Shown here in pieces: positions 5,786 to 54,733 of a stretch of 64,000 nucleotides of DNA. Location of the stretch: the NCBI GenBank assembly GCA_903902855.1, contig CAIUWK010000040.1, positions 8,279-72,278 of the forward strand. The letters are read 5' to 3'. Below the pieces are notes generated by a model. That model was given only the letters and a program-made list of their open reading frames with translations. It did no database searches and was not told the DNA's origin. Both the position numbers and the translations under genes were made by a program. Positions within the stretch are counted from its first letter, which is position 1. Every line of letters begins with the position of its first letter. The DNA is from an uncultured Geobacter sp. Lineage in GTDB: Bacteria > Desulfobacterota > Desulfuromonadia > Geobacterales > CAIOGM01.

Positions 5786-5870
5786 AAGTGAATAGTGCAT
5801 AGTGAATGGTGAAACGACAAGAACAAAAACAGTTTTTTTCACTTTTCACTTTTCACTTTTCACTTTTCGC
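5786..5870. repeat. Inverted pair of heptamer arrays: (A/T)AGTGAA-type x4 on the left, TTTTCAC x5 on the right
   Basis: 5786-5813 reads aagtgaa tagtgca tagtgaa tggtgaa. 5836-5870 reads ttttcac x4 plus ttttcgc. The arms are mutually complementary around a 22-nt spacer. The folD stop codon lies inside the right arm. Confidence 0.85.
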
Positions 5871-6710
5871 CTGCCTCTTCGCCGACTCAACGGTGTTGTA
5901 GAGGAGCATGGTGATGGTCATGGGGCCGACTCCGCCGGGGACCGGCGTGATGGCCGAGGCCCGCTCCGCCGCCGCGGCGAACTCCACATCCCCCACCAGC
6001 TTCTTCTCCCCCACCCGGTTCACCCCCACGTCGATGACCACCGCTCCCGGCTTGATCCATTCCCCCTTGATCATCTCAGCCTTCCCCACCGCGGCGATGA
6101 CCACATCGGCCCGTCCCACATGAACCGCCAGATCCTTGGTCCGGGAGTGACAGAGGGTAACGGTGGCATGCTCCTGAAGACACATGAAAGCCACCGGCTT
6201 CCCCACGATGTTGGACCGCCCGACCACCACCACCTCTTTGCCGGCCAGACTGACCCCGCTCTCCTTCAGCATCACCATCACCCCATAGGGGGTGCAGGGC
6301 TGGAAGAGCGGCTTTCCCACCACCAGCCGTCCCACGTTGTAGGGATGAAACCCGTCCACATCCTTCAGCGGAGAGATCGCCTCCAGCACCTTGTCCGTAT
6401 CGATGTGCCCCGGCAAAGGGAGTTGGACGAGTATCCCGTGAATGCGGGAATCGTTGTTGAGCCGATGGATGAGCGCCAGCAGTGCCGCCTCTGCGGTGTC
6501 CGCCGGGAGTTTGTGCTCATCGGAAAAAATCCCGGCCGCGGCGCAGGCCTTCTCCTTCATGCTGACATAGACCGCACTGGCAGGATCTTCTCCCACCAGC
6601 ACCACAGCCAGTCCCGGCTGTATCCCCTGCGCCGTCAACGCCAGAGCATCGGCGGCTATCTCTATACGCAGTTTCGCGGCAATGGCCTTGCCGTCAATAA
6701 TCGTCGCCAT
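5853..6710 (-). CDS. folD: Bifunctional methylenetetrahydrofolate dehydrogenase / methenyl-THF cyclohydrolase
   Basis: Full-length FolD-like sequence ([11 protein letters not shown]..., [19 protein letters not shown]). Confidence 0.94.
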
Positions 6711-6790
6711 CTGTCAAACCTCCTGGGAAATATGCGTCGACTATAAGAGACAACTCCCCTGCTTGTAAAGAATCTTTCCGTAGTACGGAC

Positions 6791-6817
6791 AAAAAAAATC
6801 CTCCACGAGGGAGGATT
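6791..6817 (-). terminator. Rho-independent terminator after the zinc-ribbon gene
   Basis: Minus strand stem AATCCTCCC-TCGT-GGGAGGATT followed by a T8 run. Confidence 0.7.
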
Positions 6818-6862
6818 CAAGGTTAAACATGGCAATGATCAGGAAACGGCACTCCCGGCGGT

Positions 6863-7120
6863 TCAGGCCGCGGTGGCCGAAGGGCATCCGGCACATCCGC
6901 CGCCGCCGGCTCCGGCGCAGGGGGTTGCCGCAGCTTGTTTCTTGGCGCCGTATCCTTCATTATACCAGCCTCCCCCCTTCAGGGTAAAGGCAGCCTGTGA
7001 AATCATTTTTTCCACGGCGGAACCACAGGCCGGACAGGACGTTGCAGGTGGATCGGAAAATTTCTGACGAAGCTCGAATTGTTCGTCACAACTCGTACAG
7101 CGGTACTCGTACACAGGCAT
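6863..7120 (-). CDS. FmdB-family zinc-ribbon protein
   Basis: MPVYEYRC-x2-C...C-x2-C signature. ATG at 7120 is preceded by GGAGGTG. Gly/Cys-rich tail. Confidence 0.8.
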   Translation of the reverse strand: MPVYEYRCTSCDEQFELRQKFSDPPATSCPACGSAVEKMISQAAFTLKGGGWYNEGYGAKKQAAATPCAGAGGGGCAGCPSATAA

Positions 7121-7156
7121 GGTTACTACACCTCCGGTCAATAGTGATCTGGTTTG

Positions 7157-7186
7157 AATATAAGGATCTTACCCATGGTTTGTCAA
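7157..7186 (-). promoter_or_regulatory. Sigma70-type promoter for the zinc-ribbon gene
   Basis: Minus strand reads cTTGACAaacc, an 18-nt spacer, then TATATT. Confidence 0.45.
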
Positions 7187-7208
7187 GCCCTTACCCGCGA
7201 ACTCCGCT

Positions 7209-7766
7209 TCAAACCCCACGCACGGGGAGGAACTCCCGAAGCCAGGCATCGAAAATAAGGACTTTCTTCTCCCCGAAGCGCGACAATCCCAGGCGCACCT
7301 CGTCCACGGTCAGCTCCCGGTCCACACGCCCCGGCTTCTTGGTATAGAAGAGATCGGCAAAACAGATGATCCGCTCGGAAAGGGTAACCGGCGTCATCTC
7401 CCGGTGGGGTAAGGGGAGAGCCTGGCCGATGATATCCTCAATGGTCAACCCCACGCCGATATGCCGCTCGCAGACCAGCCCATGTTCCGGATACCCCTCC
7501 CGCTCCAGGATCTCCCGTCCCAATATCCCATGGCAGAGATAGGAGGCGCTCCCCCGGCAGCCAAGCCGGGGAGTACCGGTCCCCACGACTCCGATATCGT
7601 GAAGCAGGGCCGCCTCTTCGATAAACTTCAACCCGTTCCCGTCAAATCCCAGGGAAATGGCCACAGTAAGCGCCTTGCCGGCCACCAGGCGACTATGCTC
7701 ATACACCAGGTCGAACCCTTTTTCGTTGCCGTCGAAATATTTTTTTAGGAGAATAAGAGGATTCAA
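7209..7766 (-). CDS. HD-domain phosphohydrolase
   Basis: The HD dyad (ALLHDIGV) sits in a 185-aa protein. Subfamily not resolved. Confidence 0.7.
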   Translation of the reverse strand: MNPLILLKKYFDGNEKGFDLVYEHSRLVAGKALTVAISLGFDGNGLKFIEEAALLHDIGVVGTGTPRLGCRGSASYLCHGILGREILEREGYPEHGLVCERHIGVGLTIEDIIGQALPLPHREMTPVTLSERIICFADLFYTKKPGRVDRELTVDEVRLGLSRFGEKKVLIFDAWLREFLPVRGV

Positions 7767-10746: not shown

Positions 10747-10753
10747 CCGGCAG

Positions 10754-12142
10754 ATGGAACTCGGAGCAAATCAGCGCATACTGGTCATCGATGACGAGGA
10801 GAGTCTCCGGCAGATGCTGGCGCTCCTGCTCAGCCGTGAAGGACTCCTCGTGGAGAGCGCGGCCAACGGCGAAGAAGGGCTCTCCCTGGCCGAGAAAAGA
10901 GAGTATGACTACATCCTCTGTGATATCATGATGCCGGTCATGGACGGCATCGGTTTCCTCAAGAAGGCCCACGAAGCCGGTGTGACCGCCCCCATCATCA
11001 TGATGTCCGCCTACGGCACCATGGAATCCGCCATCCACTGCATGAAAGAAGGTGCCTACGACTACATCTCCAAACCGTTCCACCCCGATGAGATCCTCCT
11101 GACCCTGAAGAAGGCCGATGAGCGGGAGCGGCTCAAGAGCGAGAACCGACGGCTCAAGGAAGAACTGGCCGGCAGCTACTGTTTCCGAAATATCATCAGC
11201 GGTCACCCGCGAATGAAAGAGATTTTCGACCAGATCAGAAAAGTCTGCGACTACAAGACCACGGTGCTCATCCTCGGCGAATCAGGTACGGGAAAAGAGC
11301 TGGTCGCCAAGGCGATTCACTATAACAGTACCCGGCGCCATGGGCCGTTCATCCCCATCAACTGCGGCGCCATCCCCGAAAACCTGCTGGAGAGCGAACT
11401 GTTCGGTCACATGAGGGGAGCCTTCACCGACGCCACCATGGACAAGGCGGGACTGTTCGAACTGGCCGATAACGGCACCCTCTTCCTGGACGAGATCGGG
11501 GAGATGTCGTTCCCCTTGCAGGTAAAACTCCTCCGGGTACTCCAGGAAGGAGAGATCCGCCGGGTGGGAGCGGTGACCCCAAAGAAGATCGATGTGCGCG
11601 TCATCTCCGCCACCTCCAAGACCCTTTCCCGGGAGGTGACAGACGGCCGGTTTCGGGGGGACCTCTTCTACCGTCTCAACGTCTTCACCATCCAACTCCC
11701 CCCGCTCCGGGAGAGGATGGAGGATCTGCCGCTGCTCGTCGGACACTTCCTGACGAAGAACGCCGCCAAGCTGGGTATTCCTCCTCCCCGGATGACTCCC
11801 CAGGCGATGAAGTGTCTCATGGCCTACTCCTGGCCGGGGAATATCAGGGAGCTGGAGAACTGCATCGAGCGGAGCCTGGTCCTAGCTGAAGAGGGGATTA
11901 CCCTGGAGACGCTCCCCGACACGGTCCGGGAACGCCATGATGCTACCGGAAGCGTCGTACTCCCTGCGGATTCCCTGTCGCTTAAGGTCGCGGTAGAGGA
12001 GATGGAACGGCGCCTGATCAGGAAGGCCCTGGACCGGACCCACGGGAACCGGACCCATGCCGCCCGGATCCTGGAGATAAGCCACCGTTCACTCCTTTAC
12101 AAACTGAAGGAATATTCGATAGATCGTAACTTCTCAGGTTGA
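10754..12142 (+). CDS. Sigma54-dependent response regulator (NtrC/Fis family: REC-AAA+-HTH)
   Basis: REC domain (ILVIDDE...CDIMMP), Walker A GESGTGKE, GAFTGA-like RGAFTDA, and a C-terminal Fis-type HTH. Confidence 0.92.
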   Translation: MELGANQRILVIDDEESLRQMLALLLSREGLLVESAANGEEGLSLAEKREYDYILCDIMMPVMDGIGFLKKAHEAGVTAPIIMMSAYGTMESAIHCMKEGAYDYISKPFHPDEILLTLKKADERERLKSENRRLKEELAGSYCFRNIISGHPRMKEIFDQIRKVCDYKTTVLILGESGTGKELVAKAIHYNSTRRHGPFIPINCGAIPENLLESELFGHMRGAFTDATMDKAGLFELADNGTLFLDEIGEMSFPLQVKLLRVLQEGEIRRVGAVTPKKIDVRVISATSKTLSREVTDGRFRGDLFYRLNVFTIQLPPLRERMEDLPLLVGHFLTKNAAKLGIPPPRMTPQAMKCLMAYSWPGNIRELENCIERSLVLAEEGITLETLPDTVRERHDATGSVVLPADSLSLKVAVEEMERRLIRKALDRTHGNRTHAARILEISHRSLLYKLKEYSIDRNFSG

Positions 12143-12144
12143 CA

Positions 12145-12232
12145 GGCTGAAGGCTGAAGGTAATCAGGAAAAGCTCTTCAAAATCAATAAAGGTGATATA
12201 TACGAGACGGGTTTAACCTTCAGCCTTCAGCC
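12145..12232. repeat. Inverted heptamer pair GGCTGAA x2 / TTCAGCC x2 around a 54-nt spacer
   Basis: ggctgaaggctgaaggt (12145-12161) is the exact reverse complement of accttcagccttcagcc (12216-12232). Confidence 0.85.
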
Positions 12233-12272
12233 TTAATACCTGAGTACCATAGATCAATAAAGTGAGGTTATC

Positions 12273-12923: not shown

Positions 12924-13359
12924 GATCTTCTGCGACGGCGCCTGCAGCGGTAACCCCGGTGTGGGGGGGTACGGCGCCATCCTGCGCCACGGCAACCTGG
13001 AAAAAGAGCTCTCCGGCGCTCACGGGGAAACCACCAACAACCGGATGGAGATGACCGCCGCCATCGAGGCGCTGGCAGCCCTGAAACGCCCCTGCACGGT
13101 CACCATCACCACCGACTCCCAGTACCTGGTAAAAGGGATGACCGAGTGGCTCTCCGGGTGGGTCAAGCGGGGGTGGATCAACAGCAAAAAAGAGCCGGTC
13201 CTGAATCGCGACCTCTGGGAGCGGCTCAGGGAATCGGCTAAAATCCACCAGGTCACCTGGCTCTGGGTCAGGGGGCATGACGGTCACGCGGAAAACGAAC
13301 GGTGCGACGAACTGGCCCGTGCCGCCATCACCGCCTGGCGGCAGGACCAAAAAATCTAG
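12907..13359 (+). CDS. rnhA: Ribonuclease HI
   Basis: [24 protein letters not shown] and DSQY motifs. ATG at 12907 overlaps the preceding gene's end by 17 nt. Confidence 0.92.
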
Positions 13360-13367
13360 GTTCTAGG

Positions 13368-13403
13368 TCACCATTCACCATTCACCATTCACGGTTCACG
13401 GTT
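13368..13403. repeat. Heptamer array TCACCAT x3 + TCACGGT x2
   Basis: tcaccattcaccattcaccattcacggttcacggtt lies immediately upstream of the HNH gene. Confidence 0.85.
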
Positions 13404-13410: not shown

Positions 13411-13716
13411 ATGACCGACTATTTCATTACTGATGTTACCGAGCAGGATGTGCGCCGCGAACGCGACAAGGGGCGGGATCTGCGCCGCACCCGATGGTGG
13501 CAGAACCGTCTTGCCCGGGGAATCTGTCACTACTGCGGCGAGACGTTTCCTCCCGACGAGCTGACCATGGACCATCTCGTGCCGGTGGCTCGAGGGGGAA
13601 AAAGCACCCCCGGCAATGTGGTCCCGGCCTGCCGCGGCTGCAACAGCCGGAAGAAATACCTCCTCCCCATGGAGTGGGATGAGTATCTGGAAAAGATGAA
13701 AGCGACTGAAGACTGA
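13411..13716 (+). CDS. Small HNH endonuclease-domain protein
   Basis: CHYCG...DHLVPVARGG...N...CRGCN is an HNH / zinc-finger signature, 101 aa. Confidence 0.8.
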   Translation: MTDYFITDVTEQDVRRERDKGRDLRRTRWWQNRLARGICHYCGETFPPDELTMDHLVPVARGGKSTPGNVVPACRGCNSRKKYLLPMEWDEYLEKMKATED

Positions 13717-13720
13717 GAAA

Positions 13721-13755
13721 TGAAGGCTGAAGGCTGAAGGTGAAAGGTGAAAAGT
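13721..13755. repeat. Heptamer array TGAAGGC x2, TGAAGGT, GAAAGGT, GAAAAGT
   Basis: The array lies immediately downstream of the HNH stop. It is inverted relative to the upstream TTCACC-type array, and it contains the same 17-mer as 12145-12161. Confidence 0.85.
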
Positions 13756-14381: not shown

Positions 14382-15709
14382 TGGAAAGAGAACGGATGCG
14401 ACAGAGTAGCGGTGCTATCATCCTGCTGGTGGCAGAGGAACAAGCGGTTGCCCTGGATGTTGAGCTTCAGCTGCAACTCTTCGGTTGCCACGCCCACTGG
14501 GTCACCACCGGCGAAGAAGCCATAGAGCTGATGAAAAAGCTTCATCCGCACCTGCTGCTCGTGGATATCGACCCGGCCGGAGCCATGTACGGACCCCGGG
14601 CAGGCGCCATCATCAGGGAACGCCATGGTATTCCGGTCCTCTTTTTAACCACTGCCGCGGAACTGGTAACGGGAGAAACGGGGATAGAGAGCGATCCCTG
14701 CAGCTACGTCCTGAAACCGTGCCGATCACGGGAACTGGAACTCGCCATCGAGATGGCGCTCTACCGATCCCGGATGAACCTGCTTCTGGACGAGGCACTT
14801 CATCAGGCCGAACTGAAACGGGCCACCCTGGAGGCTATCGTCGCCGGCATCGGTGTGGGGCTCTGCGTACTGGACACCGAATTCCGCATTTTTTACCAGA
14901 ATCCGCTGCATCGAGTGATAACCAACGGTGACAAGGTGGGAACCTACTGCTTCGCATCCATCCGGAACCGGGACCAGCCCTGCGAGGAGTGCCCCATGAA
15001 ACGGTGCTTTGAGACGGGACGGGTGGATACGACGGAACGGGAGTACCACAATGGTGAACTGCTGCAGTTTCTGGAGATAACCACATCCCCCATCACCAAC
15101 TCCCGTGGGGTCATAATTGCCGGAGTGGAGCTGGTGAAGGAGATTACGACACGCAAGGAGAGCGAATTAGCCCTGCAGGAAAGCGAGGAGCGACACCGGG
15201 AACTGGCCAACTACGATACTCTCACCGGCCTCCCCAACCGACGATTCTTCGACGACCGGCTCCACCAGGCCCTGGCGCAGGCCCGCCGCTTTGATCGACA
15301 GGTTGCCATTCTCTTCATCGACCTGGACCACTTCAAACCGATCAACGACCGGTTGGGACATGCGGCGGGTGACGACCTGCTCAAGAAGGTCGCACTCCGG
15401 CTGCGCGACTGCTGCCCGCGTGAAAGCGAGACCGTGGCCCGGATCGGTGGCGACGAATTCATCATCCTCCTGCCGGAGCTGCGAGAACAGTCAGAGGCCA
15501 CCTCCATGGCCGCCAGGCTCATCCGGCGCTTCAGCGAGAAATTTTCCATCGAATCGGAGGAGCTGACCATCAACCTGAGCATCGGGATCAGTCTCTACCC
15601 CCAGGACGGCACTGACGCCAAGATCCTCCTGAAACACGCCGATACCGCTCTCTACCGTGCCAAGAGAGAAGGACGCAACACCTGGCGCCGGGACTCTCAA
15701 ATCAGCTGA
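14378..15709 (+). CDS. Response-regulator receiver - PAS - GGDEF diguanylate cyclase
   Basis: REC-like N-terminus (LLLVDID), a Cys-rich PAS-like middle, and GGDEF active site RIGGDEFIILL. ATGA overlap with the upstream gene. Confidence 0.88.
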   Translation: MMERERMRQSSGAIILLVAEEQAVALDVELQLQLFGCHAHWVTTGEEAIELMKKLHPHLLLVDIDPAGAMYGPRAGAIIRERHGIPVLFLTTAAELVTGETGIESDPCSYVLKPCRSRELELAIEMALYRSRMNLLLDEALHQAELKRATLEAIVAGIGVGLCVLDTEFRIFYQNPLHRVITNGDKVGTYCFASIRNRDQPCEECPMKRCFETGRVDTTEREYHNGELLQFLEITTSPITNSRGVIIAGVELVKEITTRKESELALQESEERHRELANYDTLTGLPNRRFFDDRLHQALAQARRFDRQVAILFIDLDHFKPINDRLGHAAGDDLLKKVALRLRDCCPRESETVARIGGDEFIILLPELREQSEATSMAARLIRRFSEKFSIESEELTINLSIGISLYPQDGTDAKILLKHADTALYRAKREGRNTWRRDSQIS

Positions 15710-20041: not shown

Positions 20042-20896
20042 ATGAAAAAAATTGCGCTCTTCGCTAAAGTTCACGATCCCCGCTGCCAAGTAGTGGCAGG
20101 TGAGCTGATCCCGTGGCTGGTGGCCCGGGGGTGCGAACCTCTGGTGGAGGCGCACCTGGCCCGGCATCTGGCGTGGCCCAGCGGTATGGCCGACGAGGAT
20201 ATTCCCGGGGAGGCCGACCTGGTGGTGGTGCTGGGTGGGGACGGAACCCTCATCTCAGTGGCCCGACTGGTGGGGGACCGCCGGGTCCCCATCCTGGGGA
20301 TCAACCTGGGGAGCCTGGGCTTTCTTACCGAGATCACCGTGGACGAACTCTATCCCGCCCTGGAGGCCTGCCTGGCGGGAGAATATCATACATCCGAGAG
20401 GATGATGCTCCACGTCACCATCGAGCGGGGAGGAGAGATCATCGCCGAACACCGGGTGCTCAACGACGCGGTCATCAACAAAGGGGCTCTGGCCAGGATC
20501 ATCGATCTGGAAGCCACGGTGAATGGTCACTACCTGACCACCTTCAAGGCCGACGGCCTCATCATCTCCAGCCCCACCGGCTCCACGGGGTACTGCCTCT
20601 CTGCCAACGGCCCCATCGTCCACCCTTCACTGGATTGTATCGTCATCACCCCCATCTGTCCCCACACCCTGACCAACCGCTCCATCGTGGTGGACCGCAA
20701 CGCCGAGGTCACCCTCATCCTCAAATCCCAGCATGAAGATGTTTATCTCACCCTGGACGGCCAGGTAGGAGTGGAGATGAAGATGGGGGATATGGTCCGG
20801 ATCATGAAGGCGGTGAGCAAGACCCGGCTGGTCACCTCGGTCAACCGCGATTTTTTCGAAGTCCTGAGAACCAAACTGAAGTGGGGAGAACGGTAA
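20042..20896 (+). CDS. nadK: NAD kinase
   Basis: GGDGT motif and NAD-kinase C-terminal domain, 284 aa. Confidence 0.92.
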
Positions 20897-20900
20897 TTCC

Positions 20901-20972
20901 GGGACAAGGGATTGGGGACCGGTAAAATCAAAAAACAGATTTTCCTTCTCCCCGGTTCCCGGTTCCCGGTCC
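20901..20972. repeat. Inverted heptamer arrays GGGA(C/T)NN x3 / CCCGGTT x3
   Basis: The sequence reads gggacaagggattggggaccggtaaaa ... ccccggttcccggttcccggtcc. It shares the 14-mer ggggaccggtaaaa with 22637-22650. Confidence 0.8.
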
Positions 20973-20980
20973 TGGAATTT

Positions 20981-22648
20981 ATGCTCATCGATCTTGCCAT
21001 CAAAAACATCGCCATCATCGACACCCTTCAGGTGACTTTCCAGCCGGGGCTGAACATCCTTACCGGGGAGACCGGGGCGGGGAAGTCCATCATCATCGAC
21101 GCGGTGAACCTGATTCTGGGGGGGAGAGCCTCCACGGAGCTGATCCGGAGCGGTACGGACGAGGCCCAGGTGGAGGCGCTCTTCAGCCTCGCCGGGGCCC
21201 CCCACATCGCCGCAGAGCTGGCCGAAGCAGGGATTGAGGCGGACGAAGAGCTGATCGTCAGGCGGACGGTAAGCCGCGCCGGCAGAAACCGGGTCTACCT
21301 CAACGGCTCTTTGGCCACCACGGCCCAGTTGGCCACGATTGCTCCCCGACTCATTAATATCTACGGTCAGCACGAATCCCAGACTCTGCTCCGCCTGGCC
21401 AACCATCAGGAACTGCTGGACGGTTTCGGTCGACTGACCCCCCTGGCCACGACCTATACCGGACTCCATACGGAATACCGGAGGCTCGTCTCCGAACTCC
21501 GCACCCGGGAGAAGGATGGCCGGGAGGCGGCCCGCCGGCTGGACCTCCTTACCTTTCAGTGCCAGGAGATCGCCACGGTTGCCCCCCTGGCCGACGAAGA
21601 GGAGGAACTGGAGCAGGAGCGGGAGCTTCTGGCCCATGCCGAACGGCTCCTCCAGGGGACCACCGACGCCTTTGCTCGTCTCTACGGTGATGACGGGGCC
21701 CTCCTCTCCCGCCTGGGGGAAATCCGGAGAAACCTGGCCGACTGCGCCGGGATAGACCCCCGACTGGCTCCCCTGGATGCCTCACTGGCAGAGGCGGCGC
21801 TGCAACTGGAGGATGCCGCCCTGGCGCTTCGTGACTACGCCGCCAAGGTGGAAGCCGACCCTTGTCGTCTCCAGGCGGTGGACGACCGGCTCAATCTTTT
21901 GAGGGCACTGAAACGGAAGTATGCCCCCACCATCCGGGAGATCCTGATCATGAAGGAGGAGATGGAACGGGAGCGGGAGGCGCTCCTCCAACGTGGAGAA
22001 GTGCAGGAGGGTCTGGAGCTACGGCGTGACGAGATGATGGGTGAGCTGCTGCGACAAGGTAAAGAGCTTTCGGTCCGCCGCCGGGAAGCAGCGAAGAGAC
22101 TGACCAAGGAGATGAGCGCTCAGCTCCAGGATCTGGCCATGCAAAACGCCCTCTTTATCCCCGCGTTTACCCCCCTTGACGAACCGGACCCCAGCGGGAT
22201 GGACCGGGTGGAGTTTCTCTTCGCCCCCAACCCCGGAGAGCCTCCCCGCCCACTGGCCCGCATCGCCTCAGGGGGGGAACTCTCCCGCCTCATGCTGGCG
22301 CTGAAACAGATCCACCCGGAGAGCGACGTCCCCACCCTCATCTTCGACGAAGTGGATACCGGCATCGGCGGCGCCGTTTCGGCCCTGGTGGGGGAGAAAC
22401 TGCACCGGGTGGCCGAGAGCCAGCAGGTCCTCTGCATCACCCATCTCCCCCAGGTGGCGGCCTATGCCGACCACCACTTCCAGGTCCGGAAACTGATTCA
22501 GGCAGGGAGAACCACCACCACGGTCACCCCGCTGGATGACGCCGCACGGATCGAGGAACTCGCCCGGATGTTGGGGGGAATCACCATCACCGAGACCACC
22601 CGACAGCACGCCCGGGAGATGCTGCAATCAGTAAACGGGGACCGGTAA
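20981..22648 (+). CDS. recN: DNA repair protein RecN
   Basis: N-terminal GETGAGKS and C-terminal SGGELSR signature. The start is set at ATG 20981, because the upstream ORF extension translates the repeat array. Confidence 0.93.
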   Translation: MLIDLAIKNIAIIDTLQVTFQPGLNILTGETGAGKSIIIDAVNLILGGRASTELIRSGTDEAQVEALFSLAGAPHIAAELAEAGIEADEELIVRRTVSRAGRNRVYLNGSLATTAQLATIAPRLINIYGQHESQTLLRLANHQELLDGFGRLTPLATTYTGLHTEYRRLVSELRTREKDGREAARRLDLLTFQCQEIATVAPLADEEEELEQERELLAHAERLLQGTTDAFARLYGDDGALLSRLGEIRRNLADCAGIDPRLAPLDASLAEAALQLEDAALALRDYAAKVEADPCRLQAVDDRLNLLRALKRKYAPTIREILIMKEEMEREREALLQRGEVQEGLELRRDEMMGELLRQGKELSVRRREAAKRLTKEMSAQLQDLAMQNALFIPAFTPLDEPDPSGMDRVEFLFAPNPGEPPRPLARIASGGELSRLMLALKQIHPESDVPTLIFDEVDTGIGGAVSALVGEKLHRVAESQQVLCITHLPQVAAYADHHFQVRKLIQAGRTTTTVTPLDDAARIEELARMLGGITITETTRQHAREMLQSVNGDR

Positions 22649-22730
22649 AACCGGGGACTGGTAAAAGCGGGTACCGGTTCCTAACCCCCAGTCCCCAGTC
22701 CCTGGGTTTCTCCGGTCCCCAGTCCCTACG
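22636..22730. repeat. Inverted arrays: GGGGAC(C/T)GGTAAAA(C/G)C x2-3 facing CCCCAGT heptamers
   Basis: The sequence reads ggggaccggtaaaaccggggactggtaaaagcgggtaccgg ... cccccagtccccagtccc ... ccggtccccagtccc. The recN stop codon lies inside the first unit. Confidence 0.8.
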
Positions 22731-22742
22731 AGGTAACGAGTT

Positions 22743-32221: not shown

Positions 32222-32225
32222 AAAT

Positions 32226-32301
32226 CCGTTCTCCGTTCTCCGTTCTACGTTCTACGTTTTCAGCTTTAACCTTGAACATAGAACATAGAACGTAGAACCG
32301 G
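32226..32301. repeat. Inverted heptamer arrays CCGTTCT x3 / ACGTTCT x2 facing GAACATA x2 / GAACGTA
   Basis: The left array is 32226-32260 and the right array 32274-32301. The arms are partly complementary around a 13-nt spacer and fill the whole rsmI-nadE gap. Confidence 0.85.
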
Positions 32302-33123
32302 TTATTTCCCCCAATCTCGGGAGTAGCGGAAATCCCGGTCGATGGTCCGGTTGGAGACCTTGGCGATGATGGGGAGACGGCGCTTGAAGTGGGAATTCTG
32401 CACCTTGGCGTAGATCTCGTCGATGAACCCGGTGGCGAAACCGTGGGCGGCCAGTTCCCCCCGGCTCATGCGAAGGTCAACCATCCGGTAGAGAAGTTCA
32501 TCCACCTCCCGATAGGTGAACCCCAGCTCCTGTTCGTCGGTCTGCCCCGCCCAGAGGTCTGCGGAGGGCTTCTTCTCCACAATCTCCATGGGGACCCCCA
32601 TGGCCTCGGAGAGCTGCCAGACCTGACTCTTGTAGATGTCGCCGATGGGGTTCAGGGCGCTGGCCATGTCCCCATGGAGGGTACCGTACCCCAACAGCAG
32701 TTCGGTCTTGTTGCTGGTCCCCAGCACCAGGGCCGACAGGAGCGCCGAGTGATCGAAGAGGACCGTCATCCGTTCCCGGGCCATCTTGTTCCCCCGCCGC
32801 AAGGGGCTCGCATCAGGAAAGAGGTTGAAATAGGCGTCCACCATGGGGGTGATCTCCACCACCTGACAGTTGATACCCAGCCGCTCACCCACCAGCCGAG
32901 CATGGGCCTCGCTCTCCGGGTTGCTCGTCTGGTACGGCATGATGATGGCATGAACGTTCTCCGGACCCAGGGCTTCAGCGGCAATATACGCCACCAGGGC
33001 CGAGTCGATCCCGCCGGAGAGCCCCAGCACCGCCTTCTTCAGCCCCACCTTCAGGATTTCTTCCCGGACGAACCCCACCAAGATCTTTCGCAGCAGCTCC
33101 GTGTTCACCTTCAACATGCTCAT
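32302..33123 (-). CDS. nadE: NAD+ synthetase (synthetase domain only)
   Basis: PP-loop SGGIDS, 273 aa. Confidence 0.92.
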
Positions 33124-34443: not shown

Positions 34444-34633
34444 GTTCATTCCTCCCCCACCGGCAACAAGCGGGTGTGACACGTCGCGCCCCTACACTCC
34501 CCCACCCTTCCCCACAGCTTTTCTGATTTTTCACTCTTCACTCTTCACCCACCAACAGGACACAGCAAGCCGTGCCCCTACGCCATCATCCCCACACCCG
34601 GCGCCACACTTATTGTCCGTTTCTTTTAACCAT

Positions 34634-35251
34634 TTACCCTTCACCATTCACCCTTTCTTTCACCCCCTTGAAGCTTTTCCGATGAATGGGGGACGGACCG
34701 AGTCGAGCCACGGCTTCCCGGTGGGCAGCGGTGGGGTATCCCTTGTGTTCGGCAAAGCCATAACCTGGATAGAACGCAGCGAAATCCTTCATGAGTCGGT
34801 CACGGGTCACCTTGGCGATGATGGAGGCGGCGGCGATGGAGAGGCTGAGGGAATCCCCCTTGATGATGGTCTGCTGGGGAAAATCCAGGGGAATGGAGAA
34901 GGTGCCGTCGATGAGGACGAAATCAGCTGTCACGGGAAGCGAGGTAACGGCCCGTTTCATGGCCTCCAGGGACGCCCGGAGGATATTCAACCGGTCGATC
35001 TCATCATGATCGCAGATACCGATGGCGACGGCTCTCGCCTCTGCCATGATCATGGGGAACAACTTCTCCCGCTGCCGCTCGGTCAGTTTCTTGGAGTCGG
35101 TGACCCCAGGGATGATCTGTCCGGGATGAAGGATGACGGCGGCCGCCACCACCGGTCCGGCCAACGGCCCCCGCCCCGCCTCGTCGGTCCCGGCGATGGC
35201 GTGAAAGCCCAATACTTGCAATTGCGTTTCATAGCGGAGAAGATCAGTCAT
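34634..35251 (-). CDS. rnhB: Ribonuclease HII
   Basis: GTDEAGRGPLAGPVV and DSKKL motifs. The last codons run through TTCACC-type heptamers (34631-34664). Confidence 0.93.
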   Translation of the reverse strand: MTDLLRYETQLQVLGFHAIAGTDEAGRGPLAGPVVAAAVILHPGQIIPGVTDSKKLTERQREKLFPMIMAEARAVAIGICDHDEIDRLNILRASLEAMKRAVTSLPVTADFVLIDGTFSIPLDFPQQTIIKGDSLSLSIAAASIIAKVTRDRLMKDFAAFYPGYGFAEHKGYPTAAHREAVARLGPSPIHRKSFKGVKERVNGEG

Positions 35252-36451: not shown

Positions 36452-36483
36452 ACGAAAAACGCCCCGGTTTAGCCGGGGCGTTT
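36452..36483 (-). terminator. Rho-independent terminator after rplS
   Basis: Minus strand stem AACGCCCCGG-CTAA-ACCGGGGCGTT followed by TTTTCGTT. Confidence 0.75.
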
Positions 36484-39284: not shown

Positions 39285-39368
39285 GGTTCTAAGTTCTAGG
39301 TTCTATGTTTTAAGTTCTAGGTTCTAGGTTTAAGGTTCTAGGTTCTAGGTTTACCGGTCCCCAGTCCC
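39285..39368. repeat. 12-unit heptamer array (GGTTCTA and variants, ending CGGTCCC CAGTCCC)
   Basis: The array reads ggttcta agttcta ggttcta tgtttta agttcta ggttcta ggtttaa ggttcta ggttcta ggtttac cggtccc cagtccc. It fills the ffh-rpsP gap. Confidence 0.9.
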
Positions 39369-40878: not shown

Positions 40879-41463
40879 TCAGAGACGGATTGTCCCGCCA
40901 GCCGCCATGAGAGTTTCGACGATGGTGAACATATTCGTCACCGACCCGGCTCGCAACGCATCCCGCTTGCCGAAGAAATCGAGACAGACACCGCAGGAGA
41001 GGAGCTCCACCCCCCGGTTCCCCAGCTTCTCCAGCGTCTCCAGCAATTCCGACCCTTCCGTGGCCAGCAGTACCCCCTGATTCACTAGGAGGATCTTGTC
41101 GGGAAGCAGTGGGCTCTCCAGGAGCGTGATGATAAAGTTTTTCATCAGAAGCCGCCCCAGCTCCTCGGGGCCGTCACCCAGGCGGTCCGAAGTCACGAAC
41201 AGGTTGCGCCGCTCCGGTTGCGACGAGATAGTTGGCGACGCCACCCCACCCGAGGAGCCGGTAATGGTCAGGGTTATCCCGTCAGCAGTCACCGCCTCGT
41301 TTACCTCATACCCCCGGTTGCGGGCAAAACGGGTCACGTTCTCCCGTGGTGCGCCATCGTCCAGCATGACCGTCACCCCGACACTCCCCGGCTCTTCCAG
41401 CGCCCGCTTTACCGTCACCACCGGTAACGGACAGGCCATGCCTCGACACTCTATACTTTTCAT
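40879..41463 (-). CDS. yedF: YedF-type selenium/sulfur metabolism protein (TusA-like N-domain + DsrE-like C-domain)
   Basis: CRGMACPLPV (CPxP) N-terminal domain and a C-terminal ...SCGVCLDF... domain. Start at ATG 41463. Confidence 0.75.
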   Translation of the reverse strand: MKSIECRGMACPLPVVTVKRALEEPGSVGVTVMLDDGAPRENVTRFARNRGYEVNEAVTADGITLTITGSSGGVASPTISSQPERRNLFVTSDRLGDGPEELGRLLMKNFIITLLESPLLPDKILLVNQGVLLATEGSELLETLEKLGNRGVELLSCGVCLDFFGKRDALRAGSVTNMFTIVETLMAAGGTIRL

Positions 41464-41464
41464 A

Positions 41465-41506
41465 ATTTCACCTTTCACCATTCACAATTCACCCTTTGCC
41501 TTTAAC
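41465..41506. repeat. Heptamer array ATTTCAC CTTTCAC CATTCAC AATTCAC CCTTTGC CTTTAAC
   Basis: Six phased 7-nt units lie between the DUF3343-like gene and yedF. Confidence 0.8.
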
Positions 41507-41795
41507 TCTCCACCCCGCGGCAGAGGAGATAGTCATTGCCGCGCCGGCAATAGACCATTTCCGGCGCCAGTTCCGAGCCGGCCAGTGCGCTCTCAACCGC
41601 AATCCGCTCCTTCTCCGTGTATCTGAGGGCAAGTCCGCAGTCGGAGCTTACCGCCCGGGGGGCGGGAATGAGAAGGATCGGGAACTTCAGTTCCTTGAGA
41701 AACTTCTCAGCCTTCATCACCCTGTGAATGGAATTGAATACCGCGATATATTCACCTTCGTTAACCACGTCCATGCACCTCCGAAAATTTGCCAT
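41502..41795 (-). CDS. DUF3343-like small protein (putative Se/S carrier partner of YedF)
   Basis: About 90 aa with AVFNSIHRVMKAEKFLKE...CGLAL. Adjacency to yedF is typical. The start is ambiguous (41795 or 41774). Confidence 0.6.
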   Translation of the reverse strand: MANFRRCMDVVNEGEYIAVFNSIHRVMKAEKFLKELKFPILLIPAPRAVSSDCGLALRYTEKERIAVESALAGSELAPEMVYCRRGNDYLLCRGVES

Positions 41796-42630: not shown

Positions 42631-42649
42631 ATTGGGGGGGATAAAGACA

Positions 42650-42681
42650 AAGGCCGTTCCTGCATGAGCAGGAACGGCCTT
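42650..42681. terminator. Bidirectional terminator hairpin between the DUF721 gene and secA
   Basis: aggccgttcctgc-atga-gcaggaacggcct is a perfect 13-bp stem between convergent genes. Confidence 0.65.
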
Positions 42682-42723
42682 CAGTACCTTCAGAATGTTT
42701 GACGTAACAGGGACGCTATCCCC

Positions 42724-45432
42724 TTACGCTCCGCAGCACTTCTTGAATTTCTTCCCGCTGCCGCAGGTGCAGGGATCGTTTCGCCCCACGCTCTTGCTGC
42801 TCTTGATCGGCTTGAGCGGGACGGTTCCCCCCTCCACCAGATTGAAGACCAGCTTCTGCTTCTTCTGCTGCTGCTCCTCAATCTGCTCGATGTCCCGCTC
42901 CACCGCCTCCTGCTCCTTGGCAATCTGGACCCAGAAGATCTTCTCCACCACCTCCTGGCGGATCCGGGTGATCAGATCCATAAAGAGCTGATACGCCTCC
43001 TTCTTGTACTCCTGTTTGGGGTCCTTCTGGCCGTAACCACGGAGACCGATCCCCTCCTTGAGGTGGTCGATGGAGAGGAGATGATCCTTCCACTGCTGGT
43101 CGATGGCCTGAAGCATGATCACCTTGATGAGGTGCTCCATCAGATCACTGCCGAAGGATTCGAGTTTGGCGTCGAAGATCTCACGGCTCTTTTGCGTCAA
43201 CAGTTCCTGGAAGTTGGTGGGGTTCAGCCGGAGCAGGGTCTCCTGAGGGACATCCAGCTGAAAACCGAAGAGGCGGAAGGATTCGCCGGTAATACCGTCC
43301 CAATCCCATTCCGCGGCAGGAACCTTCTCCACGGCAAAGGTCTCGGAAATATCCTCCACGGCGTTCTCCATCATCTCCAAAAAATTACCGCGGGGATCGG
43401 TCCCGGCCAGGATCTCCTTGCGCTGGGTGTAGATCACCTCCCGCTGCTTGTTCATGACATCGTCATACTCGATGAGGTGTTTCCGGATCTCGAAGTTGTG
43501 GGCCTCCACCTTCTTCTGGGCGTTCTCGATGGCCCGGGAGATCATCCCGTGAGTGATGGCCTCCCCCTCCTCGATTTTGAGCATATCCATGATCCTGGCC
43601 ACCCGGTCGGAGCCGAAGATCCGGAGCAGGTCGTCCTGGAGAGAGAGGAAGAACTTGGATGACCCCGGGTCCCCCTGACGGCCGGAACGCCCCCGGAGCT
43701 GATTGTCGATGCGGCGGGACTCATGCCGCTCGGTCCCCAGAATATGAAGCCCCCCCAGCTTGACCACCTCTTCATGTTCAGCGGCACACTGGATCTTGAA
43801 CTTCGCCAGGGTTGCCGCGATCTCCTCTTCCGTTGCCTCCGGATTGCCCCGTTGCCACTGGATGGTCATCCCATCGGGATTCCCCCCCAGGACGATGTCG
43901 GTGCCGCGCCCCGCCATGTTGGTGGCGATGGTAATAGCCCCCTTACGCCCGGCCTGGGCCACGATCTCCGCCTCCCGGTCATGCTGTTTGGCGTTAAGCA
44001 CGTTGTGCGGCACACCAAACTTCTTGAGCATCTCGGAGAGGAGTTCCGATTTCTCGATGGAGATGGTTCCCACCAGAACCGGCTGCCCCTTGGCGTACAT
44101 CTCCTTGATCTCCTCGATGACCGCGGTGAACTTCTCCTTTTCGGTCTTGTAGACCACATCCGGGAAGTCGGGGCGGAGCAGCGGCCGATTGGTGGGAATG
44201 ACGGTCACGTCCAGCTTGTAGATCTTGTGAAACTCCTCGGCCTCGGTGTCGGCGGTGCCGGTCATCCCCGAGAGCTTCTCGTACATCCGGAAATAGTTCT
44301 GAAAGGTGATGGTGGCCAGGGTCTGGTTCTCATTCTCGATCTGGACCCCCTCCTTGGCTTCGATGGCTTGGTGGAGCCCGTCGGACCAGCGGCGCCCCGG
44401 CATGAGACGGCCGGTGAACTCGTCCACGATGATCACCTCTCCATCCTTGACCACATACTCCACATCCCGTTTGAACAGGGCGTGGGCGCGCAACGCCTGG
44501 TTCACATGGTGGAGGAACTCGATATGCCGCGGGTCGTAGAGGTTGTCCAGCTGCAGGAGCTTCTCCACCTTGAGGACCCCCTCCTCGGTGAGGGTGGCGG
44601 ACTTGGCCTTCTCGTCCACGGTGAAGTCGCCGGTGTGGCTCTTCCGCTTGCCGGAAAGGGTGTTGGCCTCCACCTCGATGACCTCCCCCTTCTTCAGCTT
44701 GGGGATAATCCGGTCGATGATGTAATACTTGTCCGTGGAATCTTCCGTGGGGCCGGAGATGATGAGCGGAGTCCTCGCCTCATCAATGAGAATGGAGTCC
44801 ACCTCATCCACCACGCAGAAGTAAAAGGGGCGCTGCACATAATCCTCCAGGGCGAACTTCATGTTGTCGCGGAGGTAGTCGAAACCGAACTCGTTGTTGG
44901 TCCCGTAGGTGATGTCCGCGGCATAGGCTTCCCGCCGCTGATCATCATCCAGCCCATGGACAATGACCCCCACCTGGAGTCCCAGGAACTGGTGGATCTT
45001 CCCCATCCATTCGGAGTCCCGGCGTGCCAGGTAATCGTTCACCGTGACCACATGAACCCCTTTACCGGCCAGGGCGTTCAGATAAGCGGGAAGGGTCGCC
45101 ACCAGGGTCTTCCCCTCGCCGGTCTTCATCTCGGCGATCTTCCCCGAGTGCAGGACCATGCCGCCGATGAGCTGCACGTCGAAGTGCCGCATCCCCAGGA
45201 CCCTTTTCCCCGCCTCACGGCAGACGGCAAAGGCATCAGGAAGGATGTCATCCAGGGTAGCCCCCTTGGCCAAACGCTCCTTCAACTCCGGAGTCTTGGC
45301 CCGGAGCCGCTCGTCGTTGAGCGCCGCCATCTGCGGCTCCAGCGAGTTGATCTTCTCCACAATTGGGCGCATCCGCTTCAACTCACGCTCGTTCTTGCTG
45401 CCGACAATCTTTCGTATGAGTCCACCAAGCAT
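42724..45432 (-). CDS. secA: Preprotein translocase ATPase SecA
   Basis: Full-length SecA ([27 protein letters not shown]) with a C-terminal zinc motif [14 protein letters not shown]. Start at ATG 45432. Confidence 0.96.
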
Positions 45433-45588
45433 TATCTGATCTCCTGAGCTAAAGGGGGGATTGACTATGAAAAAACAGGTAAAGATACCATAATCTCCCC
45501 GCCCCCTCAACAGAAAAGGGATGAACCGCCTGGCGGCCCACCCCTTCCCGTCTTACTTCATGGTTTGTGACCGGTTGCGGCGACTCCC

Positions 45589-52406: not shown

Positions 52407-52473
52407 GGCACCCCCCTTTCTTCGGAAAAAGGTGTCGCTCTCAGCTTCAGGTCAGGTCACAAGGAGTTTCGCC

Positions 52474-53739
52474 ATGGCATGCAAAAACTCGATCCGAAAC
52501 GGAGTACTCTTCTTTTTCGCGCTGTGCGGTTTCACCTCCGTCGCCCAGGGATCGGGCTACGGTCTCTTCACCCAGGGAGCATCCCCCCTGGGCCAGGCAG
52601 ACGCCGTGGTCGCCCACTGTGACGGCGCGTCGACGCTCTTCTTCAATCCTGCGCTCATGAGTAAACTACCGGGAACCCGGGTGGAAATAGGCACAACCCT
52701 GCTCTTTCCCACTCGCCATTACACGGCTCCCGACGGGTACACGGCAAGCACCAAGGATACGGTTTTTACTCCCAGCACCTTTTACCTGACCCACACCTTC
52801 AACGACAAGATCAGCGCCGGTCTGGCGGTATTTAACCCCTTCGGGCTGGGAACCGACTGGGGGAGTAATTGGGGAGGGGCTTATGGTGGCCAATACATTG
52901 CAACGAAGTCGGAACTGACGACCTGGGAGATCAACCCGGCAGTTTCATACCGGATACTGCCGGCGCTTTCCGTCGCAGCCGGGCTTGACGTTCTGTTGCT
53001 CAACGCAACTCTCGAAAACAAAAATCTGTCAACCACTTACGGTTTCCCTACCCGTTTTGATGTTGCGCAAAAATTCACCGGTTCAGGCAACGGAGTAGGT
53101 TACAATTTCGGCCTATCGTTGGAATTGCCCTACGATATCTCTTTTGGCGCTTCGTACAGGAGTCAGGTAACCATCGACGTGGATGGCGATTTTACTGCCG
53201 ATGTCCTTTCCCAAAGCGTCGGAGGCAAGACAACAGTGAAGCTTCCCCAACAGGTTTTCGCCGGAGTTGCCTACAAACCGACGGATCGAATGACGCTGGA
53301 AGCCGGAATGCGCTGGGAAGATTGGAGCTCATTCCAACAGCTGCAAATCCAATTTGCCCCCAACATATTCGGTCTGCCCTCTCCTTCTCCCTCTCCCCGC
53401 GACTGGCACAGCAGCTACGCCTTCAACCTGGGGGGTAAATTCAAGATCAACGATACCTTTTCCCTTATGGCGGGGTACCTGCACGGCTGGAATCCGGTGC
53501 CGGACAGCACCTTTGACCCGTCAATACCTGATTCGGACACCAATCTCTATACCTTCGGCGGGGAAGCCCGTTACCACGGCTTTACCCTGGGGTTGGCCTA
53601 TGGCTACCAGATGCAGAGCGCCCGTTACAAGTCCGACAACGCTTACGCCCCTACACCTCTCAATGCCTCTGCCTCTGCCGATGGCACCTACGAAACCGAC
53701 CTCCACCTGGTGGGGTTGAGCCTGGGATACACGTTTTAA
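52474..53739 (+). CDS. Outer-membrane hydrophobic-compound transporter (FadL/OMPP1/TodX family)
   Basis: Signal peptide, an N-terminal G(Y)GLFTQGA hatch-like motif, beta-barrel alternation, and a C-terminal aromatic residue (GYTF). Confidence 0.8.
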   Translation: MACKNSIRNGVLFFFALCGFTSVAQGSGYGLFTQGASPLGQADAVVAHCDGASTLFFNPALMSKLPGTRVEIGTTLLFPTRHYTAPDGYTASTKDTVFTPSTFYLTHTFNDKISAGLAVFNPFGLGTDWGSNWGGAYGGQYIATKSELTTWEINPAVSYRILPALSVAAGLDVLLLNATLENKNLSTTYGFPTRFDVAQKFTGSGNGVGYNFGLSLELPYDISFGASYRSQVTIDVDGDFTADVLSQSVGGKTTVKLPQQVFAGVAYKPTDRMTLEAGMRWEDWSSFQQLQIQFAPNIFGLPSPSPSPRDWHSSYAFNLGGKFKINDTFSLMAGYLHGWNPVPDSTFDPSIPDSDTNLYTFGGEARYHGFTLGLAYGYQMQSARYKSDNAYAPTPLNASASADGTYETDLHLVGLSLGYTF

Positions 53740-54629
53740 GTTCCCTGCAGCGCCACTACTCCTGCCCGCCCCTCGATCTCTCCCATGCTCAAGGGGGAAT
53801 CAGGGGCCCCCTTGCCGAACTCCACGGCAGCCTCCGCCAGGGTGATGAACCGGCACCCCAGAGCAGTCAACCGCTCCAAAAGGTCCACAAAAATTGCAGC
53901 GGTCGCCTTCCCTTCCAGTTCCGCATGGATGGTCAGCACGTTGAGTCCCGGAGTGATGAGGGAGAGATAGTGGTCGTTGAGCGTCTGAGTCGTGATCCCG
54001 TTTTCACCCAGCAGTTCATCGGTGGTGGGGAGGGTGGTGGGAAGTTGCAGAGTCCGGAACCGCCGCCCCTCCCAGACCGGATAGAAGGGGGCGCGGCCGC
54101 GACTGTCGCTGCTGTACTCAAGCTTCAGTGCGTCCTGCACCTCCAGGGAAGCGGCAGAGACCATCCACCCCGGCGCGGCCACCGTTTTTGTCCGGTGGCC
54201 GAAGATCTCCTCATAGACGGCGCTGGCCTGTCCCATTTCCAGGGCCACGGTGGGCTTCAGCATTCGGGGGAGATAGTCGTGCCACTTCACATGGTCCCAG
54301 CAGTGGATTCCCACCTCATGCCCCTCCTGCTCCGTCCGGCGGATAATCTCGCCAGAACGCGCCCCGATCATGGGAGGGGGTAACAGCGTACCGTAGAGGA
54401 GGGTACGCAGGCCATAGACCGACGGCGCCCGGGTCCGGATCATCTTGGCGAGAAACCCTTTTCGGGTAAAGATGCGTCGGATGGCCTTACCGGAGTTATC
54501 CGGGCCCAGGGAGAAGTAGAAGGTCCCCCGGATGCCGAACCGCCGGAAGAGGTCCAGCAGCGCCGGAACCCCGTCTCGGGTGCCGATAAAGGTGTCCACA
54601 TCAACTTTCAGGGCAATGACTGGGAGCAT
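53736..54629 (-). CDS. Polysaccharide deacetylase family protein (ArnD-like deformylase)
   Basis: LKVDVDT ... HCWDH NodB-type motifs. Start at ATG 54629. The longer ORF start only translates the heptamer array. Confidence 0.75.
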   Translation of the reverse strand: MLPVIALKVDVDTFIGTRDGVPALLDLFRRFGIRGTFYFSLGPDNSGKAIRRIFTRKGFLAKMIRTRAPSVYGLRTLLYGTLLPPPMIGARSGEIIRRTEQEGHEVGIHCWDHVKWHDYLPRMLKPTVALEMGQASAVYEEIFGHRTKTVAAPGWMVSAASLEVQDALKLEYSSDSRGRAPFYPVWEGRRFRTLQLPTTLPTTDELLGENGITTQTLNDHYLSLITPGLNVLTIHAELEGKATAAIFVDLLERLTALGCRFITLAEAAVEFGKGAPDSPLSMGEIEGRAGVVALQGT

Positions 54630-54636
54630 AATATCC

Positions 54637-54733
54637 AGGTTCAAGGTTAGAGGTTCAAGGTTCGAGGCCGAGGTTCGAGGTTCAAGGTTCAAGGTTCAAG
54701 GTTCAAGGTTCAAGGTTCAAGGTTCAAGGTTCA
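54637..54733. repeat. 14-unit heptamer array, consensus AGGTTCA (8 perfect consecutive copies at the 3' side)
   Basis: The array reads aggttca aggttag aggttca aggttcg aggccg aggttcg, then aggttca x8. Confidence 0.95.

Follow-up and report, generated by a model that had tools for sequence, protein, structure and literature searches.

Hypervariable heptanucleotide repeat arrays between co-directional genes in an uncultured member of the Geobacteraceae

Cyanobacteria reportedly carry heptamers of the short tandemly repeated repetitive (STRR) type, described by Mazel in 1990. In the survey of Mrazek 2007, as far as it is reported in PMC4679880, heptanucleotides are the most abundant unit of long simple sequence repeats (SSRs) in most prokaryotic genomes, and slippage tied to the polymerase footprint was proposed as their origin. 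For Geobacter metallireducens, Aklujkar 2009 described families of tandem hepta- and octanucleotides that mostly occur as opposite-strand pairs; the families were treated separately, classes 1-3 were presented as 'global regulator binding sites', regulatory RNAs or IHF/HU sites were proposed without tests, and one family, Gmet_H4, consists of four GGACCGG units (PMC2700814). In G. bemidjiensis 12% of the intergenic regions contain multicopy sequences, whose co-occurrence is not random (PMC2996986). Rehm 2015 reported GGGAATC heptamers in Xanthomonas and GGGGA(C/T)T heptamers in Nostoc; Xanthomonas has 70-75 convergent inverted pairs with a strong bias to positions at or over stop codons, and position is conserved while length and sequence vary between relatives (PMC4692102). 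MacGregor 2015 described TAACTGA repeats in Beggiatoaceae, cyanobacteria and Bacteroidetes and raised the idea of a cold-shock protein (PMC4679880). A functional test is reported in none of these papers (PMC2700814, PMC2996986, PMC4692102, PMC4679880), nor in Mrazek 2007 as far as that survey is represented there. Here we analyse period-7 tandem arrays in the intergenic gaps of a 64,000-nt stretch of contig CAIUWK010000040.1 (the window, meaning the whole stretch), and their counterparts in related genomes. The first-pass annotation of this DNA had left open whether the class was known; it has been formally described (PMC2700814; PMC4692102; Mrazek 2007, as cited in PMC4679880), and the window arrays are of the same class as heptanucleotide long SSRs, the G. 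metallireducens multicopy sequences and the Xanthomonas and Nostoc heptamers.

The window has a G+C content of ~58%, and its proteins include a sigma-54 response regulator, FolD, RecN, NAD kinase, Ffh, RimM and YedF. The closest relatives of its RecN (80-81% identity) come from metagenome-assembled genomes (MAGs) of uncultured Geobacteraceae; since the protein set and the best RecN relatives both point there, the window was assigned to an uncultured member of this family. A cyanobacterial source, considered because CCCCAGT is the STRR unit, was rejected on the same grounds, both the proteins and the RecN neighbours being those of Geobacteraceae. Gene boundaries were taken from public gene calls. 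The comparison set comprised 80 recN neighbourhoods (1.32 Mb, mostly Geobacterales), and labels of the form L0xx denote related loci or contigs compared with the window.

Arrays were detected with Tandem Repeats Finder and with a self-match scan (score at least 10) set against Markov-1 shuffles. Tandem Repeats Finder reports a period-7 array at every one of the 12 loci where the first-pass annotation had seen short intergenic gaps filled by heptanucleotides, with 2.3-14.1 copies and 75-100% match (Table 1). The self-match scan gives 14 period-7 arrays in the window versus 0.0 in the shuffles, and 0-2 arrays for each other period from 4 to 13. The 80 related loci contain 55 period-7 arrays versus none at period 5, eight at period 8, eight at period 10 and four at period 11. 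When the window and the related loci were scanned without bias for any 4-mer occurring three times at a fixed period, 329 clusters turned up at period 7, against 22 at period 5, 72 at period 8 and 37 at period 10. The arrays are thus confirmed as genuine period-7 tandem repeats, and because they are found again in independent metagenome assemblies they are not assembly artefacts. Exact words recur at distant loci at the positions named earlier (a 17-mer at 12145 and 13725, a 15-mer at 22712 and 39354, a 14-mer at 20914 and 22637); because the units draw on a small vocabulary, shared words of this kind are by themselves no improbable event.

All arrays are located between neighbouring co-directional genes. 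In the window, arrays occupy 9 of the 27 co-directional gaps of at least 30 nt, together with two shorter gaps, and none of the 11 convergent or divergent gaps; the related loci show the same tendency to co-directional gaps. Arrays extend from the upstream stop codon, which they adjoin or overlap, to within a few nucleotides of the following ribosome-binding site or start codon. The first-pass annotation was correct in placing the stops of folD, recN and rnhB inside arrays. Two further ideas were rejected. Units are not selected for stop codons in all three frames, since a stop is present in 24 of 40 units against 20.5 ± 2.5 expected. A missing Shine-Dalgarno sequence of recN, considered as a sign of hairpin coupling, is not distinctive: a Shine-Dalgarno-like 4-mer precedes 13 of 41 recN genes versus 26 of 58 window genes.

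Table 1. Heptanucleotide arrays of the window and other features mentioned in the text. TRF, Tandem Repeats Finder; NAT, N-acetyltransferase; ORF, open reading frame; fold energies in kcal/mol.
Feature	Positions	Strand	Units or composition	Setting	Predicted fold
Inverted pair	5784-5868	-	+ strand: (AGTGAAT)x~4, 22-nt spacer, (TTTTCAC)x4.7; TRF blocks 5787-5813 / 5836-5868	Between folD stop (TGA in array, 5853-5855) and NTP-transferase gene start (5767)	5770-5875: -26.8, z -2.65; followed by UUUUUU, the sole such pair
Perfect inverted pair	12144-12234	+	(GGCTGAA)x2.4, 56-nt loop, (CCTTCAG)x2.6; TRF blocks 12144-12160 / 12217-12234	2 nt past sigma-54 response regulator stop (12142), upstream of acyltransferase gene	12140-12240: -37.3, z -5.9
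One-sided composite	13357-13403	+	GGTTCTAGG, then (TCACCAT)x3.6, then (TTCACGG)x2.3	Between rnhA stop (13359) and small HNH gene (13411)	Unstructured, z -0.96
One-sided composite	13704-13755	+	Units (GACTGAA), (TGAAGGC), (AAGGTGA)	Over HNH stop (13716), ending just before HAD hydrolase start	Unstructured
Inverted pair	20899-20976	+	GGGACAA GGGATTG GGGACCGGTAAAA, loop, (CCCGGTT)x2.9	Whole nadK-recN gap; stem takes in last bases of nadK stop and ends 1 nt before recN ATG	20895-20980: -45.5, z -5.2; also -45.9, z -7.2
Inverted pair	22636-22730	+	(CGGGGACCGGTAAAAC)x2.7, then CCCCAGT units	Over recN stop (22646-22648), upstream of NAT gene (22743)	22630-22742: -50.5, z -2.6
Inverted pair	32225-32301	-	(TCCGTTC/ACGTTCT)x4.9, 16-nt loop, (GAACATA/GAACGTA)x3.6; TRF blocks 32225-32258 / 32274-32298	Fills nadE-rsmI gap; nadE stop adjoins; rsmI Shine-Dalgarno GGAG inside last units	32222-32304: -35.1, z -7.0
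Short one-sided array	34527-34548	-	(TTCACTC)x2.7	rnhB-yraN gap	Gap unstructured, z -0.07
Array	34629-34664	-	(ACCATTC/ACCCTTC)x3.4	Encodes last 10 rnhB codons and stop (C-terminus ...KGVKERVNGEG)	
One-sided array	39285-39368	-	(GGTTCTA)x9.6 (39285-39351), (UAGAACC)n in transcript; plus GGGACTGGGGACCGGTAAA module	Between ffh stop (39375) and start of rpsP (39264); rpsP has strong Shine-Dalgarno	Unstructured, z -0.93
Array	41465-41506	-	(TTCACCN)x4, (GGUGAAN)x4 in transcript	Between 88-aa Se_S_carrier stop and yedF start; provides AGGUGA Shine-Dalgarno	
Longest array	54637-54734	-	(AGGTTCA)x14.1, (UUGAACC)n in transcript	Between stop of gene at 54804 and probable ATG (54628) of ArnD-like deformylase gene	Unstructured, z -0.89
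HNH endonuclease gene	13411-13716	+	101 aa, stand-alone	Between rnhA and HAD hydrolase gene	
Selenium-related gene pair	40879-41768	-	88-aa Se_S_carrier (PF11823) gene, then yedF		
Terminator-like hairpin	36457-36483	+	12 bp		
Terminator-like hairpin	42648-42683	-	16 bp		
tRNA gene	156-227	-			
tRNA gene	56784-56856	-			
15-nt tandem repeat	45106-45145		(GGTCTTCCCCTCGCC)x2.7	Inside 928-aa ORF 42724-45510 (-)	

The arrays have the properties of heptanucleotide long SSRs in the sense of Mrazek 2007: head-to-tail runs beyond chance, one-unit steps in copy number between close relatives (as expected of slippage), and confinement of non-triplet units to non-coding DNA, with arrays in gaps or over last codons only. 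Like the window, that survey shows tandem 5-11-nt units beyond chance, with heptanucleotides dominant and non-triplet units kept out of genes; unlike here, no inverted pairing, stop-codon adjacency or conserved cores are described in the portion of it reported in PMC4679880.

The G. metallireducens sequences come from the same bacterial family as the window and share with it the heptad pairs, their variable distance and the frequent position right after a stop codon. The module GGGGACCGGTAAAA of the window exactly matches the Gmet_H4 members H408, H415 and H426, and GGGGACCGGTAAA(A), at 20908-20927, 22637-22650 and 39345-39368 (-), is the 3' part of the same three members. The Gmet_H4 make-up of 3-4 GGGACCR units and a GG(T/G)AAAA tail is thus found in the window, in copies with 2-3 units and not 4. 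The first arm of the recN-NAT pair (22636-22678) is really a 16-nt repeat (CGGGGACCGGTAAAAC x2.7), an H4-like module duplicated with its tail, and not a run of pure heptamers. The units of most window loci (GGTTCTA, AGGTTCA, TTCACCA, GGCTGAA) differ from the G. metallireducens consensuses MTYCTGA, TCTCCGTS and GTTGCTYN. The class 3 unit MTYCTGA (x5 pairs) forms no array in the window, so that what the window has in common with this class is just the arrangement as paired heptad arrays ~80-115 bp apart. H4 elements were reported also inside genes, whereas none is intragenic in the window.

The Xanthomonas and Nostoc heptamers are likewise intergenic and of period 7. The CCCCAGT/GGGGACT unit of the window is the Nostoc unit, and locus L020 has GGGAATC itself. 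The arrays of CCCCAGT/GGGGACC around recN, set apart in the first-pass annotation as the exception, turn out to be the best-known family (Gmet_H4, Nostoc unit). In Xanthomonas and Nostoc one G-rich unit dominates and a G-quadruplex was proposed, while here there are many units and most of them, of the GAAC and GTGAA types, cannot form one. The TAACTGA repeats also are intergenic direct heptamers near start codons that are absent in relatives with the same gene order; unlike the window arrays, they have a single fixed unit, are almost never inverted and keep a fixed orientation to the downstream gene (PMC4679880). Period-7 arrays were in addition seen at two Nitrospirota MAG loci (L071, at 3323-3346, 11623-11639 and 14733-14751; L073, at 6981-7011), with units CTGCACC, GAGTCAG and GGGTCAG and one array forming an inverted pair, so that such arrays also occur outside Geobacterales.

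The first-pass annotation had proposed a frame of TTC followed by four variable bases that is shared by units of locus-specific sequence. The units are indeed locus-specific and GAA/TTC is enriched (22 of 40 distinct units, taken from both the window and related loci, vs 9.9 ± 2.4 in composition-matched shuffles), which makes this frame a reasonable first description, but the real cores are 4-5 nt long: GAAC, GTGAA and GGGAC. GAAC/GTTC is present in 13 of the 40 units vs 2.3 in shuffles, and the 4-mers at the top of the period-7 scan are GAAC (24), TGAA (17), GTGA (17) and GGGA (14). Three core families exist, GAAC/GTTC, GTGAA/TTCAC and GGGA(C)/TCCC, and a broader KTC/GAM core accommodates the GGGGACC/CCCCAGT arrays. 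In arrays of the GAAC type we counted eight distinct variant events at the four core positions versus 23 at the three others, designated N3 (binomial p=0.0008). A supposed likeness of GGTTCGA and GGTTCAA units to the tRNA T arm was rejected, as most units lack the R57-A58 positions.

HutP is known to bind repeats of the form UAG-N4. A ring of the HutP or TRAP kind on RNA, a single-strand-binding cold-shock domain with a 7-nt footprint or a nucleoid protein on double-stranded DNA (IHF/HU, the proposal of Aklujkar) might be the reader if the arrays were sites for an abundant protein that recognizes a short core (GAAC, GTGAA, GGGAC; broadly GAM/KTC) every 7 nt. Such a protein would account for the retention of the core while N3 varies, for the enrichment of GAA/TTC and GAAC and for the same few cores leading the unbiased scan; in some pairs (L031) the arms match chiefly at GTTC/GAAC and not at N3, and a precedent for the 7-nt register is the binding of one CspB to each heptamer (discussed in PMC4679880). 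Still, we regard this explanation as rather unlikely. At least three unrelated cores occur in one genome, arrays are dispensable and core families are swapped at the same gap, and cores 7 bp apart are out of step with the helical repeat of DNA. The arrays have no linked gene for a candidate protein, though no search was aimed at a cognate HutP/TRAP-type protein. The GAA/TTC core is present at 7-nt spacing on a strand that is not fixed relative to transcription, also in single arrays, which speaks against an RNA-strand-specific reader; the earlier suggestion of a protein reading GAA on RNA is accordingly not favoured.

The two arms of inverted pairs follow an order. On either strand, the arm with more G than C comes first in ~18 independent pairs, with two or three pairs opposite and two neutral. 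The tables of Aklujkar for G. metallireducens agree: adjacent H4 elements are (+) then (-), and class-3 pairs are (-) then (+) for the C-rich strand, which is the G-first order (PMC2700814). The conserved 4-nt core with variable N3 and the rule 'G-rich arm first' are possibly new.

The five inverted-pair loci each are predicted to fold into one long stem (-27 to -50 kcal/mol, z -2.6 to -7.0), and the one-sided arrays (39285, 54637, 13357, 13704, 34490) are predicted to be unstructured (z +0.4 to -1). The long imperfect hairpins anticipated for inverted pairs, next to arrays with one side only, are therefore borne out by RNA folding of the arm pairs. Long GC-rich stems directly after stop codons, one of them followed by UUUUUU (the folD pair), might be taken for transcription terminators or attenuators at operon boundaries; this we consider very unlikely. 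Four of the five pairs lack a U tract, and a terminator scan of the window detected no intrinsic terminator at any array, in keeping with the first-pass annotation, which had excluded classic U-tract terminators. Arrays avoid convergent gaps, where terminators concentrate, and in several cases the distance from the stem end to the following start codon is 1-12 nt. Clear canonical terminator-like hairpins, strong ones that contrast with the heptad stems, are present elsewhere in the window (Table 1).

Other known element classes were also sought. The arrays consist of contiguous 7-nt units without spacers, and not of 25-40-nt repeats with unique spacers, so they are not CRISPR, as had been noted before. 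No palindrome common to the arrays, as in repetitive extragenic palindromic (REP) sequences or bacterial interspersed mosaic elements (BIMEs), was found, and neither a RAYT transposase nor an IS200/IS605-like gene was seen among the window proteins scanned. No known RNA family was matched in the arrays by the Rfam 15 covariance models at gathering score, the sole matches in the window being two tRNAs. The arrays, those near recN included, contain no match to LexA/SOS boxes (patterns GAAC-N4-GTTC and GGTT-N2-C-N4-G-N3-ACC) or Cheo boxes, and within the arrays the only sigma-70 promoter match is a weak one (9/12) at 20901.

The gap between nadK and recN allows the arrays to be followed across relatives. 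Heptad arrays are present in this gap in 19 genomes, with quite different units: GGGAC/CCCGGTT, ATTTTGA/TTCAAAA, AGTTTTG/AACTCAA, GTTCTAN/NTAGAAC, GTTCAAN/AACCTTG, GGGACCGGTGACC/CCTGGTC, AGGAACG/CCTCGCA and others. In 18 of the 19 genomes the stem starts between -3 and +5 nt relative to the stop codon, and z reaches -8.5. In L001, L005, L007 and L069 nadK and recN overlap or nearly abut. The array of the window is itself unchanged in all same-species contigs, and its GGGGACCGGTAAAA module is the one that matches the Gmet_H4 family. In L041 the gap holds (at 9871) the palindrome GRCGTAGCGCTGCTACGCC, which belongs to another Geobacter multicopy family (Aklujkar 2009), so the gap accepts several kinds of repeat element. 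The same palindrome was also seen in L009 (16583), L012 (2341), L024 (11741), L027 (13689) and L050 (2498), and a sequence resembling it in L006, L026, L029 and L030.

Orthologous gaps in relatives with ~80-87% identical coding DNA have other units or copy numbers. The recN-NAT gap holds a GGGGAC/CCCCAGT pair in the window and a GTGAA/TTCAC pair in L001, and is just 22 nt long in L002. At the rnhA-HNH gap L002 has (GGTTCTA)x7.5 with degenerate TCACC units where the window has (GGTTCTA)x2, and the gap with the array at 13704-13755 is 34 nt longer in the window than in L002. Changes are seen even among contigs ~99-100% identical to the window: the recN-NAT gap of L081, L082 and L084 has one more AGTCCCT unit (+7 nt) as well as +17 nt, and the ffh-rpsP gap measures 103, 108, 110 or 122 nt in different strains. 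These indels and gap lengths agree with the suggestion of the first-pass annotation that the arrays are slippage-generated variable-number repeats. In the ffh-rpsP array of L087 the GGGACTGGGGACCGG (GGGAC) module is swapped for GTGAAT units and four units are altered; over 250 nt the array region differs by 20 mismatches plus one 12-nt indel (13% divergence), against 0-4 mismatches per segment, ~1.5 in 250 nt (~0.6%), in the flanks. The array at 41465-41506 is unchanged in every strain examined. No single array is indispensable, and the arrays change much faster than the sequence on either side of them.

Contig L085 (ERZ27313047 k141_808689, 1-4665) is 100% identical to the window over its first ~2700 nt, up to ~640 nt into recN, and 76-85% identical thereafter. 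Either the genome is a recombinant, or the metagenome assembly is a chimera with its junction inside recN; the contig was rejected as a 92%-identical strain, and its recN-NAT gap was therefore counted as that of a distant relative.

The exchange of whole modules, between near-identical strains as well as between related species, might instead mean that each array is a small element, mobile or spread by copy-paste, similar to miniature inverted-repeat transposable elements or gene-conversion cassettes, which inserts beside a stop codon and does not grow in place. The GGGGACCGGTAAAA module and its non-repetitive tail, common to three window loci and the 49-member Gmet_H4 family, point in this direction, as do the multicopy sequences of G. 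bemidjiensis with their co-occurrence (PMC2996986) and the other multicopy palindrome in the nadK-recN gap of L041. This reading nevertheless appears distinctly unlikely. Target-site duplications, termini conserved across families and an associated transposase are all lacking, and most loci have units of their own. Slippage in situ is suggested by the ±7-nt differences and by the graded variation of units, and for the swapped L087 module the window contains no near-identical donor, none being closer than 9 mismatches in 40 nt.

Some observations concern the neighbours of arrays. The HNH gene, found at the same place in L002, is bounded on both sides by heptad arrays with opposite core orientation (TTCACC... 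and ...TGAAGG); its protein has an NCBIfam match only to the HNH domain of Cas9d/IscB (E 1.5e-11). For yedF, the second gene of the selenium-related pair, public calls disagree on the start (200 vs 186 aa), and one candidate ATG lies within the GGTGAAN array. The 15-nt tandem repeat in Table 1 presumably encodes a repeat of five residues.

Taken together, we think it probable that the arrays are hypervariable, dispensable intercistronic heptanucleotide SSRs driven by slippage, which form REP-like hairpins when paired. Slipped-strand mispairing of 7-nt units would create and remodel the arrays, palindrome-templated copying would probably keep the two arms of a pair alike, and arrays would persist where the transcribed non-coding spacer between cistrons tolerates them. 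REP sequences are intergenic transcribed stem-loop repeats located within or at the ends of operons, often a few nucleotides from a stop codon. A paired array in a polycistronic RNA may similarly form one long stem by which the gap is closed and the stop comes to lie next to the following start, and this stem may act like a REP/BIME intercistronic stem-loop, stabilising 3' ends, serving as a processing site or modulating translational coupling, and presumably not as an intrinsic terminator. The likeness to REP/BIME would lie in the way of working; unlike REP, the arrays have no palindromic consensus, and their stems are built of tandem 7-mers with locus-specific units. One-sided arrays may be overgrown single arms that serve as unstructured spacers. 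The slippage and templated-copy mechanism, like the role at the RNA level, is what we infer from these comparisons.

Several facts weigh against this explanation. Purely neutral slippage predicts neither the conserved 4-nt core, nor the rule that the G-rich arm comes first, nor the finding that convergent and divergent gaps are wholly free of arrays, and it gives no reason why the period should be 7. The occurrence of GGGGACCGGTAAAA at three window loci and in ~49 copies in G. metallireducens suggests copying between loci over a purely in-situ origin. The one-sided arrays have no hairpin. Since neutrality leaves the conserved core, the G-first order and the gap exclusion unpredicted, there is room for a factor that reads the sequence or for copy-paste spread. 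In the most far-reaching version, which we consider unlikely, the arrays would be a lineage-wide code of operon punctuation, in which a selected core of 7-nt periodicity is read by an abundant factor and a G-first hairpin flush with the stop codon controls ribosome hand-over or the fate of the mRNA.

In practical terms, the arrays are markers of high variability, and metagenome assemblies are likely to break at them. The nadK-recN gap, with hairpins of different heptads in 19 genomes, empty gaps in others and strain variants besides, is an unusually clean comparative series. Three regularities, namely the core with variable N3, the G-rich arm first and the location in co-directional gaps starting at the stop codon, constrain models of these elements and are testable in cultivable Geobacter.

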